Positions 50,610-54,489 are shown, counted from the first letter of the stretch. The stretch: DNA of 64,000 bases from Draconibacterium sp. (GCA_041554075.1 JBFFMM010000001.1:816-64815); one strand, 5' to 3'. Numbers and translations are program-made. The notes: generated from the sequence alone by a model not told the origin.

Positions 50610-50870
50610 CTAAAAAGCTTTCGTTTTCCGTATTTGCTGCCAGGGAACAATAAATAAATGCCTTTCAGAATTGACCTGATTTGTTAAGGACATTCCTTTC
50701 TCACTATTTCTGCTTTCAGTAGAATAATTCTGTTCCATTCTAAAAATATTCCTGGGTTGAAATAATTTTTTATCTTCTGTTTTTTTAATAAGAGCCATGG
50801 GTAATTGCTTTAAATTGTTTAATGACTTCGTGGGCATAATGAGCAGTACGCCTAAACTAATCTTGCTCAT
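50610..50870 (-). CDS. possible small hypothetical protein
   Basis: 86-aa ORF co-directional with its neighbours; no motif. Confidence 0.25.
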   Translation of the reverse strand: MSKISLGVLLIMPTKSLNNLKQLPMALIKKTEDKKLFQPRNIFRMEQNYSTESRNSEKGMSLTNQVNSERHLFIVPWQQIRKTKAF

Positions 50871-50973: not shown

Positions 50974-51123
50974 TTACATATATTCTTCACAATAATTAAC
51001 AGCCTTGTTCTTAAGTGCGTACATACAATCTTTACGATTCTCACAATTCATACATAAGCCTTTAAAGACTTCTTTTGTTGTATTTTGTGTAATCGACATT
51101 TTCTCCTTTTTCATTGTTTTCAT
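50974..51123 (-). CDS. 49-aa four-cysteine microprotein (absent from the ORF track)
   Basis: MKTMKKEKMSITQNTTKEVFKGLCMNCENRKDCMYALKNKAVNYCEEYM*, starting 11 nt after the rnk stop; Cx2Cx5Cx11C pattern. Confidence 0.75.
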   Translation of the reverse strand: MKTMKKEKMSITQNTTKEVFKGLCMNCENRKDCMYALKNKAVNYCEEYM

Positions 51124-51134
51124 AATTCCAATAT

Positions 51135-51548
51135 TTATAATGTGTATTTACCATCTGCTTCAGGCTGATATTCAATGCTTTGAATTGTAATGTCAACTTC
51201 TCCTTTTGGCGCCTCAAATTTTACGGTATCACCAATTTTGTAGCCCAGCAAAGCACAACCTAAGGGAGAAAATACCGAAACATTTCTTTTTTTAAAATCA
51301 GCCTCATGTGGGTACACCACCTTTACAATCATTTGCGCTTTTGTTTCCTCATTTATTACCTGAACAACTGAATTCATTGTCACAAACTCAGGCTCAATGG
51401 ATTTGGAATCTACTTTTTCAGCACGATTTATTTCATGTGCCAGAACTTCAAGGTTTTTGATTTCAATTTTTTTGTCGTTTCGTGCGGCTTGAATGAGTTT
51501 ACTTAACCTCATAAAGTCAAGTTCTGTAATTTTTATTTTTTCTTTCAT
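51135..51548 (-). CDS. rnk: Rnk (GreA/GreB C-terminal family) RNA polymerase-binding protein
   Basis: ITELDF.RL, VTMNS, VYP.EAD, SV.SPLG.ALLG, YQPEA.G.Y.L. Confidence 0.9.
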   Translation of the reverse strand: MKEKIKITELDFMRLSKLIQAARNDKKIEIKNLEVLAHEINRAEKVDSKSIEPEFVTMNSVVQVINEETKAQMIVKVVYPHEADFKKRNVSVFSPLGCALLGYKIGDTVKFEAPKGEVDITIQSIEYQPEADGKYTL

Positions 51549-51554
51549 CTTTTT

Positions 51555-52034
51555 TTAGTTTAGGTACGAGTTCACTAATAGTGCATCTACATTTTTTTTT
51601 GTCATTATTCCCGGTTGCGTAACTAACTTTTCGATGTATAACTTCTGTTGAAAACCTTTGTACAGAAATGAAACCTGATTACCTTCCTTAGCACCTAAAC
51701 AGGCAATGGCAATAGGATTATAAATAGATATGTCGTAATTGTTTTGAATATTCTGAGGCAATACAATTTTAACCAGTTGCTTTTTCTTATGCTCTGTTAC
51801 AAGAATAAATTCAGCATTTAGTGTAATTACATTTCTCGGGAGTTTCATTGAATTATATTTCTTTGAAAATGAGATAAGCATAAACAATTTATGAAAATAA
51901 ACAGGTGCAATGTGCAGTTTTCCAACATCATCGCTCAAAAGCTCTAATAGCTGATAATAATCGCTAAATGTAACAGCCCTATCAAACCATTCATAAGACC
52001 GAACATCTTTTTTTAATGTAATATTGTTCACCAT
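51555..52034 (-). CDS. divergent Rnk-like protein
   Basis: VITLNAE, KIVLP, ISIYNPIAIACLG.KEG, QP: degenerate versions of Rnk motifs. Confidence 0.7.
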   Translation of the reverse strand: MVNNITLKKDVRSYEWFDRAVTFSDYYQLLELLSDDVGKLHIAPVYFHKLFMLISFSKKYNSMKLPRNVITLNAEFILVTEHKKKQLVKIVLPQNIQNNYDISIYNPIAIACLGAKEGNQVSFLYKGFQQKLYIEKLVTQPGIMTKKNVDALLVNSYLN

Positions 52035-52059
52035 TTCGACAAAAAATTTAATTTAACTA

Positions 52060-52103
52060 AAGTCGCATACGATTTATACAATGTCGTATACGATTCAAAT
52101 GTA
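52060..52103 (-). promoter_or_regulatory. -7 element TACATTTG plus two tandem operators (AAGTCGCATACGAT, ATGTCGTATACGAT)
   Basis: CAAATGTA at 52096-52103; boxes at 52081-52094 and 52060-52073, 21 bp apart. Confidence 0.7.
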
Positions 52104-52164
52104 TAAATGTTTAAGTTCAAATTATATGATATAAATAAGCAATATACAAATACTGCAAAACGGG

Positions 52165-52890
52165 TTACGCTCTTAGCCTACTTTTAATTTTAACCCATAC
52201 AGCTCTTATCGTTTTCCCCTGTTCATTTTGGTCATCAATTTCCAAAAAAACTTTATTTCTAATTGTTGCATTTTGAATTATCAGATTGTATGGGAGTACC
52301 CCCAACGGTTCAATCTGTAACGACTCCAATTCGGTAAAATGTGCGTAGGCATTGTCGGCCTTTGTACGAACAAGTCCTACACAGTTTTCTTTTTCGGGCA
52401 AAGTATTAATATGCTGTACCAGTTCAGCTTCAATTTCGGGTGTGCCATCCGAAAAAACAACAGCATAATCAGAATTTGAAATAATTTGTTGTATTGCATT
52501 CAAATCATCGCAAAATGGAAAATAAACAAGTAGATATTTACAGTTTTTAAGAGAGTTTTGTGTTTTAATATAGGTTGCCAGGTTATTCACATGTTCAACA
52601 TCGGGCTTTTCGGAAAATTGTACGCTTCGACCATATAAATTATGAAATCGACAAAAGAAAATTTCCATATCGTAAATGTTGTCGTTGTTGCAATACTCAT
52701 ATTTTGCAAACCTATTGGTTTTTACTGATGCATCCGTAATTCCCATCAGTTCTTCTAAAACCGAATATTGGTTGGTGTCGAGAATCATTAAGTTTTCTCG
52801 TTCAATCATAGCAAACGAACTCAAGTACTGGCAAATACCTGTGCCTCTGGTGAGCTCAATTAGTGATAATATTTTCATATCTGAATACAT
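52165..52890 (-). CDS. degenerate MinD/COG1149-type P-loop ATPase homologue
   Basis: N-terminal strand + ELTRGTGIC where GKGGTGKT is expected; SDYAVVF, LGVLPYN, GKTIRAVW.KI match the family's C-terminal pattern. Confidence 0.55.
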   Translation of the reverse strand: MYSDMKILSLIELTRGTGICQYLSSFAMIERENLMILDTNQYSVLEELMGITDASVKTNRFAKYEYCNNDNIYDMEIFFCRFHNLYGRSVQFSEKPDVEHVNNLATYIKTQNSLKNCKYLLVYFPFCDDLNAIQQIISNSDYAVVFSDGTPEIEAELVQHINTLPEKENCVGLVRTKADNAYAHFTELESLQIEPLGVLPYNLIIQNATIRNKVFLEIDDQNEQGKTIRAVWVKIKSRLRA

Positions 52891-52914
52891 ATAATTTTCT
52901 CTTATATTTGTATT

Positions 52915-52929
52915 ACAAAGAGCGTGCCA
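52915..52929 (-). promoter_or_regulatory. candidate sigma-54 promoter
   Basis: Minus strand TGGCACG-CTCT-TTGT, correct -24/-12 spacing, one mismatch to TTGC. Confidence 0.5.
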
Positions 52930-52930
52930 T

Positions 52931-52944
52931 ATGTCGGATACGAT
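52931..52944. promoter_or_regulatory. operator copy ATGTCGGATACGAT in the divergent marR promoter region
   Basis: Same motif as at 52081; TATATTTG at 52903-52910 lies upstream on the plus strand. Confidence 0.7.
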
Positions 52945-53006
52945 ATATTATAGTTCGCAATAGATGTAATTAAGCAAAAAGGGTTGATGACATTCGATAA
53001 AAAACT

Positions 53007-53708
53007 ATGGATAGTAAATACAAAGCAATAAAGCAGCTTATTGATTTTTGGGCTTTATATGAAACCGAAGAAAAAGGTGAACACACCTTATTAAATTTTT
53101 CGCAGTGGATAATAGGACAAATTGAACGGGAAACAATTGTTAATACGAAAATTAGAACCAGGCATGAAAATAAATCCCGCTCAGAAGGTATGGAATATTT
53201 AAATAAGCTAGATCCTGTTTCGCGATTTCAGGAACACATTCTTCGAATTGCTCGTTTAGAGGACTTTTATATTCGAAAATACCTTGCGGATTTACCTTTA
53301 AACTCCCGATTGGAATACCTTTTTTTATTCACTGTTGATGGATTAGAGAAAGCAAAAAAAACAGACCTCATTAATATTCATTTGGTTGAATACACCACCG
53401 GAATGGATACAATACGACGATTAATCAAGAATAATTTATTGTATGAACTACCCGATGTGCAGGATAAACGTGCAAAATTACTGATACTAACAAAAGAAGG
53501 TGATGGGGTATTAAAAAAAGCCAATCGGCGAATGGATGTAGCCCGAAGCAAATTTTTATCTTGCATTAGCACCAACAAATGGAAAAAGGCATTACCGGTA
53601 CTGAATGAAATTGATGCGTTCCATAGCGACATTTATCTTAATCATTACGATAAGCCATTTGCCGAAATCTCAAACTTAATGGATTCGTTAAAGCATTTAA
53701 ATAAATAG
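53007..53708 (+). CDS. MarR-family winged-helix regulator (Bacteroidota long form)
   Basis: K.DLI.......TTG.D.IRRL....L...PD..DKRAK.L.LT.EG. Confidence 0.85.
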   Translation: MDSKYKAIKQLIDFWALYETEEKGEHTLLNFSQWIIGQIERETIVNTKIRTRHENKSRSEGMEYLNKLDPVSRFQEHILRIARLEDFYIRKYLADLPLNSRLEYLFLFTVDGLEKAKKTDLINIHLVEYTTGMDTIRRLIKNNLLYELPDVQDKRAKLLILTKEGDGVLKKANRRMDVARSKFLSCISTNKWKKALPVLNEIDAFHSDIYLNHYDKPFAEISNLMDSLKHLNK

Positions 53709-53901
53709 TTATTCTAGTTTTAAAATTGTCGTTTTACTATTTGAAATAATGCATTTATCCCCAACTTTTCCCTTCGTATTACCTTTTGGAGATAAACTAA
53801 TCTAGCCCAGGTGTTATACACTGCAGGTATAGTACCGAGAATTCAGTATCAGTCCCCATTTTCATCACATTACATTTTTTTGGAAGTTTCAAAAAATCTT
53901 C

Positions 53902-53924
53902 TAAGTTTGCATCGGATACGACAT
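53902..53924 (+). promoter_or_regulatory. -7 element TAAGTTTG plus operator copy ATCGGATACGACAT
   Basis: Reverse complement ATGTCGTATCCGAT at 53911-53924, immediately after TAnnTTTG, upstream of the third rnk. Confidence 0.7.
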
Positions 53925-54078
53925 AATTAACGACGACGTCGATTTTACAGTGGCAATTGAATTAGCTGAAATGATTGTTTAACAAAAAACATCTGCACAA
54001 AGCTGTTTTCTGGCTTTTATTAATGCACCGTTGCTTAACAGTAAACCATCGAAAACTTAAACAATTATACTTTATGCA

Positions 54079-54489
54079 ATGAAAACAATAGAAATTACAA
54101 AACTTGATTTTACACGAATAACAAGTACGATATATAGTTTTCAGCAGTTTAATAAAAATGATTTCAGTGAAATTGCGGAACTGAAAAAAAAAATTAAACT
54201 CGCCAATAAACGAGATTCTTCCGAGATTGGTTCTAACTATTTAACAATGAATTCTATTGTTGAGGTAACGCAAAAAGACACAGGTAAAACCATGCAAATT
54301 GAGTTGGTTTATCCCAAAGACGTTAATTCAAAGGCAGGCAAAATTTCTATTCTTTCGCCTCTTGGTAATGCAATTATTGGGAAAAGAGTAGGAACTAGAA
54401 TTTGTTATAATACACCCAAGGGTAAAATAAGTTTAAAAGTCAATCAAATTATTTATCAGCCAGAGGCCAACGGCGATTATCATTTATGA
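54079..54489 (+). CDS. rnk: Rnk-family protein (third paralogue)
   Basis: ITKLDF.RI, LTMNS, LVYP, ISILSPLGNAIIG, IYQPEANGDYHL. Confidence 0.88.
   Translation: MKTIEITKLDFTRITSTIYSFQQFNKNDFSEIAELKKKIKLANKRDSSEIGSNYLTMNSIVEVTQKDTGKTMQIELVYPKDVNSKAGKISILSPLGNAIIGKRVGTRICYNTPKGKISLKVNQIIYQPEANGDYHL

Follow-up and report, generated by a model that had tools for sequence, protein, structure and literature searches.

A window of 64,000 nt from a marine Draconibacterium sp. (GCA_041554075.1, JBFFMM010000001.1:816-64815; genome 70% complete), by which we mean the whole stretch of DNA analysed, carries at 50.6-54.5 kb a group of genes encoding a MarR-type regulator, three Rnk-type proteins, a MinD-fold protein and two micro-proteins. 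We interpret this group, with slightly better than even confidence, as a self-contained transcription-factor module, in which a local MarR repressor would release Rnk paralogues to compete at RNA polymerase's secondary channel. Genes were called from a listing of open reading frames (ORFs) together with Pfam and NCBIfam scans. The marR gene (53007..53708, plus strand, 233 aa) is divergent from the gene of a 241-aa MinD/ParA-fold pseudo-ATPase (52165..52890, minus strand), whose conserved start is probably M5 at 52878. On the same strand as the latter follow rnkB (51555..52034, 159 aa), which encodes a divergent Rnk paralogue with its own conserved signature, rnkA (51135..51548, 137 aa), which encodes a canonical Rnk-type homologue, cysP (50974..51123), which encodes a 49-aa Cys4 micro-protein and starts 11 nt past rnkA, and orf62 (50610..50798), which encodes a 62-aa micro-protein and is the last gene of the rnkB operon. 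The second canonical Rnk-type gene, rnkC (54079..54489, plus strand, 136 aa), lies beyond marR. A first-pass annotation of the window had proposed two canonical and one degenerate Rnk, a MinD-like protein without its lysines, a Cys4 peptide and a MarR; this gene set and its positions proved correct, and orf62 is added as a seventh conserved ORF.

The conservation of the module was examined by searching for homologues of the MarR in 300 genomes of the GTDB order and 81 genomes of the genus. Wherever the homologue is at least 44% identical, Rnk genes adjoin it (24/24 loci, in Draconibacterium and other Bacteroidales); the 12 loci with MarR homologues of 24-38% identity have other neighbours and no Rnk. 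The order in which marR is divergent from the 241-aa gene, followed by rnkB and rnkA, is found in 10 loci, among them all relatives whose flanking DNA is long enough, even where the pseudo-ATPase is only 30% identical. Its carriers are Draconibacterium orientale DSM 25947 (G018), another Draconibacterium species (G030), four metagenome contigs, a Saccharicrinis metagenome-assembled genome and Plebeiibacterium sediminum. Identity to the window proteins is about 70-89% for MarR, 64-86% for RnkA, 45-73% for RnkB and 30-60% for the 241-aa protein. At the 14 further loci, MarR is 44-75% identical, between one and four Rnk genes adjoin it at each, and TCGnATnCGA sites are paired with a spacing of 20-21 bp; the 241-aa gene is absent from all of them (14/24 in total). 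As all loci with a MarR of at least 44% identity have Rnk genes and paired operators while the 241-aa gene is variable, the conserved unit consists of MarR, Rnk and the operator, and the pseudo-ATPase gene, the two peptides and RnkC are accessories of this core. Co-conservation of the gene set, on which the first-pass proposal depended, holds for the four-gene order of the 10 loci, but the invariant core comprises only MarR with one or two Rnk genes, and the pseudo-ATPase, Cys4 and RnkC genes come and go. In one metagenome copy (L008), marR, rnkB and rnkA are intact despite a pseudo-ATPase gene split by IS21 and an apparently frameshifted Cys4 ORF, which indicates that accessories can be lost while the core stays. 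Pairwise Nei-Gojobori ratios of non-synonymous to synonymous substitution rates (dN/dS), which are rough as dS is near saturation in most pairs, are about 0.04 for marR, about 0.1 for rnkA, 0.15 for cysP, 0.16 for rnkC, 0.16-0.19 for rnkB and 0.12-0.24 for the 241-aa gene. These ratios indicate purifying selection on all the genes rated, none being near neutrality, and the neutral decay that had been considered for the degenerate members is not seen in rnkB or in the 241-aa gene.

The regulator is the sole DNA-binding protein of the module and also its most conserved member. It matches the MarR-type winged helix HTH_27 of Pfam with 26.8 bits (cut-off 22.2), and its residues 82-203 match MarR-family structures (2a61 at 9e-5, 7l1i), with TM0710, a MarR pump regulator, SlyA and HpaR among the matches. 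With local repressors of the MarR/SlyA/OhrR kind it shares the winged helix, the divergent layout with predicted autoregulation and putative palindromic operators overlapping promoters. In contrast to them, it carries a conserved N-terminal extension of about 65-95 aa before the MarR core, its regulon appears to consist of transcription-factor paralogues only, with no efflux pump, enzyme or detoxification gene, and one of the operators abuts a sigma-54-type -24 element. This long MarR has one conserved cysteine.

The operators were recognised through the 10-mer TCGNATACGA, which occurs four times in the window (52063, 52084, 52934 and 53912), always within the three intergenic regions of the cassette. 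This compares with 0.28 occurrences expected, and the count was reached in 0/100 shuffles. The sites extend to a 16-bp palindrome, ACATCGnATnCGATGT, whose four copies are likewise confined to the three promoter regions. The presence of one motif in every promoter region, which the first-pass annotation had claimed, thus stands, and the motif is also conserved across loci. On the rnkB side, the palindromes O1 and O2 (AAGTCGCATACGATTT and ATGTCGTATACGATTC, 52060..52096) begin at 52060 and 52081, 21 bp apart. O3 (ATGTCGGATACGATAT, 52931..52946), with a position weight matrix (PWM) score of 20.2, lies in the divergent region between marR and the pseudo-ATPase gene. Before rnkC, the good site O4 (GCATCGGATACGACAT) is accompanied by a degenerate partner (ACGACGTCGA) 21 bp downstream (53909..53945). 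Paired operators 20-21 bp apart are present in every related locus examined; a pair occupies the corresponding position upstream of rnkB in L015, L017, L019 and L020, and L015 has two good sites upstream of rnkC (10500 and 10520). The MarR would probably bind these palindromes as dimers.

In the rest of the genome, the frequency of the 10-mer matches that of the controls, and a genome-wide scan for PWM matches and pairs in the 70%-complete genome returned no further paired intergenic operator, so the regulon appears to be the module itself. Among the candidates that were rejected as regulon members, the five top-scoring single sites examined are inside genes, and one single intergenic site precedes a RecQ-like gene. 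A pair upstream of a glutathione peroxidase gene (contig C40:10004-10035) was rejected as well; it consists of two TCGnnnACGA sites with a different spacing, 14 bp, and is probably the operator of an ordinary 159-aa MarR that is encoded after the glutathione peroxidase gene and is unrelated to the module.

Promoters of Bacteroidota follow the consensus -33 TTTG / -7 TAnnTTTG, which is that of the Bacteroides sigma-A factor. Candidate boxes in three promoter regions, those of rnkB, rnkC and marR, resemble this consensus. For rnkB (52096..52150, minus strand), the candidates are TACATTTG (52103-52096), 2 nt upstream of O2, and TTTG (52150-52147)-N20-TATAATTTG (52126-52118). For rnkC (53879..53909, plus strand), the candidate is TTTG (53879-53882)-N19-TAAGTTTG (53902-53909), whose box stops 2 nt before the operator. 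For marR, a candidate -7 box, TATATTTG (52903..52910, plus strand), lies 20 nt upstream of O3; the conservation of a CAAATATA block in 7/9 loci examined (it reads AAATGTA in L019 and was not seen in L021) can be explained by this block being the reverse complement of the candidate box. A TAnnTTT-like box also stands immediately before the operator in L015, L016, L017 and L020. Operators located in this way, at or just past the putative transcription start, would fit simple repression. A scan for sigma-70-type promoters, which is not applicable to Bacteroidota, gave fewer matches than the shuffled expectation (16 vs 22).

The pseudo-ATPase gene is preceded by a different element, TGGCAC-GCTCT-TTGT (52915..52929, minus strand), which is of the sigma-54 -24/-12 type and lies 4 nt downstream of the operator. 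As TGGCAY-N5-TTG(T/C/A), the element is kept at fixed spacing in 9/9 pseudo-ATPase loci examined (the window, L008, L015-L020 and L025), with one extra base in L019, and is absent from loci without the pseudo-ATPase gene. Conservation across these nine loci covers the GG, the spacing and the TTG, but not the C of the -12 position (T, C or A). When both strands are counted, the whole genome has 33 copies of the pattern. The genome has one Sigma54_DBD gene (rpoN) and at least four Sigma54_activat genes, which encode bacterial enhancer-binding proteins. In other Bacteroidales (L063-L067), the form TGG(C/T)AY-N5-TTG(C/A/T) also precedes operons that adjoin a histidine kinase and a sigma-54 response regulator. 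As the element is conserved, rpoN and activators are present and the same form is found beside sigma-54 systems, a sigma-54 promoter is the likelier explanation for the region before the pseudo-ATPase gene.

The assignment of the Rnk-type proteins is clearest for RnkA, which matches the GreA_GreB C-terminal domain (E 3.8e-21, 75.3 bits, Pfam cut-off 26.9) and Rnk_N, the short N-terminal coiled coil (E 3.3e-6, 27.9 bits, cut-off 23.7), and aligns over its full length with the solved Rnk structures 2pn0 (7e-18) and 3bmb (6e-14). RnkC matches GreA_GreB (E 7.7e-20, 71.1 bits) and aligns over residues 3-135 to NF004396, with no separate Rnk_N match. RnkA and RnkC thus resemble E. coli Rnk (3BMB) and the Nitrosomonas protein 2PN0 in length (136-137 aa), in the combination of an Rnk_N short coiled coil with a Gre C-terminal domain and in the YQPEAxGxY tail. 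RnkB is more divergent; it has 15 invariant columns across 11 orthologues, and its alignment retains the T-x-x-D-Y N-helix and S/N-P-[IL]-[AG]-x-A-C-[LI]-G motifs. Distant RnkB orthologues keep a C-terminal FQPEKEK..L, which resembles the Rnk YQPEAxGxY tail, and the orthologues of L017, L019 and L020 have unmarked precomputed GreA_GreB matches. An rnkC orthologue in the same position is present in G030 only (65% identical). Further Rnk-like gene pairs are located a few kb from the module in G030 (L015:14787-15803) and G003 (L045:7856-8911), which points to an enlarged Rnk family in some species of Draconibacterium; the incomplete genome of the window itself has five Gre-fold genes. Inhibitory Gre homologues such as Gfh1 of Thermus and Rv3788 of Mycobacterium are also extra Gre-fold paralogues competing for the secondary channel (PMC4598747), and Gfh1 structures match RnkA at 1e-7 to 9e-9. 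They differ from the module proteins in having a full-length coiled coil with acidic tip residues reaching the active site, whereas the module proteins have the short Rnk-type N-domain.

Binding of Rnk to RNA polymerase was shown in 2008, and its competition there with Gre factors and DksA is the sole biochemical activity known for E. coli Rnk, whose coiled coil is too short to reach the active site (PMC4598747). The E. coli gene is solitary, with no known regulation, function or phenotype (PMC4598747), which sets it apart from the two or three paralogues of the module, one of them strongly diverged, with their putative dedicated repressor. The lack of an established function and the short coiled coil leave room for Rnk-fold proteins acting off RNA polymerase, on another partner as FKBP-like domains, for example in nucleotide metabolism, or on MarR itself, and the locus would then be an ordinary stress operon under MarR autoregulation. 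The historical name "regulator of nucleoside diphosphate kinase" hints in this direction, and the YQPEAxGxY signature is lost from the C-terminus of Draconibacterium RnkB. Nevertheless, RnkA and RnkC align end to end with solved Rnk proteins, for which polymerase binding with Gre/DksA competition is the only activity known, and nucleotide-metabolism genes are found in 0/24 loci, so we consider action away from the polymerase unlikely.

In the repressor-controlled competition that we favour, the long MarR would bind, as dimers, pairs of the 16-bp palindrome 20-21 bp apart, on one face of the helix. The palindromes would coincide with, or closely follow, the start points of three promoters of the housekeeping sigma factor, serving rnkB-rnkA-cysP-orf62, rnkC and marR, and one of them would also abut the -24 element of the sigma-54-type promoter of the pseudo-ATPase gene. 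A cue, most plausibly redox or nitric oxide (NO)-related, would release the repressor and the Rnk paralogues would accumulate. By analogy with E. coli Rnk, these could dock at the secondary-channel rim of the polymerase, displacing GreA and a DksA-type factor, so that pausing or initiation would be changed genome-wide. As lineage-specific accessories, the MinD-fold protein without lysines, the Cys4 peptide and the orf62-encoded VPWQQ peptide would probably serve for tuning or sensing. We infer the repression, the MarR-operator binding, the Rnk-RNA polymerase binding and the signal alike from the sequences. The host genome encodes GreA and a DksA/TraR-type gene, possible competitors of Rnk, and Gre factors and DksA are important under NO stress in E. 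coli (PMC11498084), which makes an inducible anti-Gre/anti-DksA switch plausible.

Novelty lies in the combination of genes, in the pseudo-ATPase family and in the Cys4 domain; the MarR repressor, Rnk and the MinD fold are of known kinds. In the literature searched, nothing describes such a module, as the first-pass annotation had suggested, links Rnk with a MarR regulator or treats Rnk in Bacteroidota. Since the Rnk paralogues appear to be placed under a dedicated autoregulated repressor with an operator that can be read from sequence, the purpose of Rnk becomes testable, and the cue that releases the repressor would tell when cells want Rnk. A cultured type strain, D. orientale DSM 25947, carries the four-gene core, which is found in NZ_FOHT01000052 (L016/L024). 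The module also defines three uncharacterised protein families, namely the MinD-fold proteins without P-loop lysines, the Cys4 domain and the VPWQQ peptide, and provides a case in which a putative MarR operator lies directly against a sigma-54-type promoter.

The Cys4 peptide encoded by cysP reads GLC-x-NC-x5-C-x11-CEEY, and G22, L23, C24, N26, C27, C33, C45, E47 and Y48 are invariant in seven homologues, one of which sits in a locus without the pseudo-ATPase. A profile search of the 300 genomes found the domain, as C-x2-C-x5-C-x10-13-C-E-E-[FY], in other settings, in tandem in proteins of 93-134 aa and, in one case, joined to the N-terminus of a NuoE-type [2Fe-2S] subunit. In other Bacteroidales, proteins with this domain (L063:6282-6886, L064:5916-6320, L066:6063-6446 and L067:4798-6220) head operons of the NuoE/NuoF-GltD/glutamate-synthase-like type beside sigma-54 two-component systems with a histidine kinase and a response regulator, and one such NuoE/NuoF-GltD-type operon adjoins Rrf2, DUF438 and DUF1858 genes. 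These settings suggest that it is a metal or Fe-S redox domain. It is not covered by any Pfam model, and a comparison of the cysP profile with the PDB, an atlas search and a word-based homologue search (two matches) were uninformative. In L008, the Cys4 ORF (L008:6250-6392) shows an apparent 1-nt deletion that shifts its frame. The second micro-protein, which has no Pfam match, is too short for routine gene calling; its start and its C-terminal [FIV][IV]VPWQQ motif are kept in L008, L015, L018, L020, L025 and L026, where its middle diverges. In these six loci the ORF also sits after rnkA, and the window copy carries FIVPWQQ.

To the right of the module, the window contains an NO-response cluster comprising genes for qNor, DoxX, two DUF438-hemerythrin-PAS proteins, DUF1858, DUF2024, a cupin, a hemerythrin, RIC and Rrf2. 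DUF1858/DUF438 genes adjoin the module in three lineages, represented by the window, L018 and the clade of L020, L025 and L026, and in the latter clade the orientation of the module relative to the NO cluster is reversed. In G030, a qNor fragment of about 100 codons, 58% identical to the window qNor, is located 2 kb beyond rnkC (L015:13144-13446), possibly as what is left of an earlier NO cluster adjoining the module. In G309, a DoxX gene abuts marR. The module could be conceived as an NO- or redox-responsive switch, in which MarR or the Cys4 micro-protein senses, the Rnk paralogues replace GreA and DksA in nitrosative stress, and the MinD-fold protein, expressed from its sigma-54 promoter, is a nucleotide-independent adaptor. 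Such a switch would give Rnk its first physiological role. We regard it as rather doubtful, and equally tentative is the assignment, within it, of a C-x2-C-x5-C-type metal or Fe-S site to the Cys4 micro-protein. Of the stress context noted in the first-pass annotation, the NO cluster is real and recurs, but is missing at other loci, and the RelQ-type alarmone synthetase is next to the module in the window only. The same holds for a Usp gene, and a link to these two was dropped.

Several observations weigh against the module acting as proposed, or against parts of the proposal. None of the three proteins reaches the equivalog cut-off of NCBIfam NF004396 (109 bits), the scores being 105.3 for RnkA, 92.5 for RnkC and 34.7 for RnkB, and they are therefore described here as Rnk-type homologues and not as certified equivalogs. 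The GreA_GreB match of RnkB (E 9e-5, 22.8 bits) is under the Pfam cut-off of 26.9, with an E value of 1.3e-8 for NF004396. As E. coli Rnk has no known phenotype, the output of the module may be subtle or different. The MarR regulon appears local to the module, with the proviso that distant members could be missed in a 70%-complete genome. The NO cluster is missing from most related loci examined, and its adjacency may be a remnant of shared ancestry. With regard to the sigma-54 element, the consensus of the -12 element is TTGC and the window has TTGT, and no sigma-54 activator gene is present in or adjoining the module.

The 241-aa protein has no Pfam or NCBIfam match. A profile of its family gave only weak NifH matches to PDB sequences (E 0.11), and its placement therefore required a fold search. 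A single-sequence AlphaFold2 model was unusable (predicted local distance difference test score, pLDDT, 35) and was replaced by a model based on a 10-sequence alignment, with a pLDDT of 80 and a predicted template-modelling (TM) score of 0.84. The top Foldseek matches of this model are FleN, NifH, MinD and FlhG (E 5e-8 to 1e-6, probability 1.0, TM 0.6-0.65), and a search of ESM-Atlas returned CbiA/ParA clusters and ferredoxin-inserted (Fer4+CbiA) MinD-like clusters (TM 0.69-0.73). The protein is thus predicted to share the SIMIBI fold of FleN/FlhG, MinD and the MinD-like ATPases with an inserted ferredoxin (COG1149 type). It differs from these ATPases in having no MinC/MinE-, FleQ- or ParB-like partner gene close by and in its nucleotide-binding motifs. 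The segment between beta1 and alpha1 reads LTRGTGI, and (T/S/I/L)(R/K/L/I)GTG(I/A) in the family, where the GTG is invariant; no family member has the GK[ST] of Walker A (KGGxGK[ST]), and the signature lysine is absent from the window protein and its closest relatives. In the strand 119-124, YLLVYF-P, which was aligned by eye to the hhhhDxP of MinD, a tyrosine (asparagine or serine in two members) is read at the position expected for the Walker B aspartate. With E values of up to 1 allowed, none of the 10 members matches the Pfam ATPase models CbiA, AAA_31, ParA and MipZ, the sole matches being those of Fer4 models to P0009. The protein is very rare, as HMMER, run exhaustively against 1.84 billion representatives, returned eight relatives. 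P0009, the most distant member of the family, has an insert of 2x[4Fe-4S] at the same place as the inserted-ferredoxin MinD-like proteins, and it is accompanied by a divergent MarR homologue and, downstream, by a short ORF of RnkB-like appearance. Based on the model and these features, we interpret the family as conserved pseudo-ATPases that arose from MinD-like proteins with a ferredoxin insert. In one metagenome copy, its gene is split by an IS21 element with transposase and IstB (L008:2393-4685).

This protein could itself be the key player, as a FleN-like anti-activator of a sigma-54 activator encoded elsewhere that feeds back on its own promoter, the Rnk genes merely sharing the repressor. 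The top Foldseek matches include FleN and FleQ-FleN complexes, the conserved sigma-54-type promoter is found before the pseudo-ATPase gene only, and the genome provides rpoN and at least four activators. However, FleN is not singled out, as NifH and MinD score alike (TM about 0.6), and FleN needs ATP, whereas the pseudo-ATPase family has no P-loop lysines and probably no Walker B aspartate. The 14/24 module loci without the pseudo-ATPase gene also argue against such a role, which we judge very unlikely.

The distribution of the module is patchy, as the form with the pseudo-ATPase is present in 3/37 Draconibacterium genomes and the MarR gene in 14/81, and the flanking genes differ in every genome; G030, for example, has sialic-acid genes there, and G018 has SusD, esterases and a sulfatase. 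These two features, together with the IS21 insertion in L008, a transposase in L018 and the existence of inhibitory Gre homologues (PMC4598747), would fit a mobile defence or addiction cassette with one or more Rnk paralogues as Gfh1-/Rv3788-like inhibitors of host or phage transcription, the other small proteins neutralising them and MarR silencing the whole set, but this is highly improbable given PADLOC matches at noise level only, the lack of flanking integrase or phage genes in most copies, the strong purifying selection, the recurrence beside NO-stress genes and not in defence islands, and an Rnk-type coiled coil (137 aa vs 156-158 for GreA/Gfh1) that is probably too short to reach the catalytic centre.

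Two further genes are associated with the module in related loci. A 316-aa protein with no Pfam match is encoded next to marR at L020:4215-5165, and also in L025, L026 and L028; its domain (..IPSAWQYPE..) is also found in the sensor part of the L063 and L067 histidine kinases, the partners of sigma-54 regulators, and a search of the genome of the window gave no homologue of it. Small DUF2582 genes, encoding winged-helix-like proteins of 67-73 aa, follow rnkA at L018:7683-8424, L027:9204-9407 and L029:6110-6313 and represent a variable accessory.

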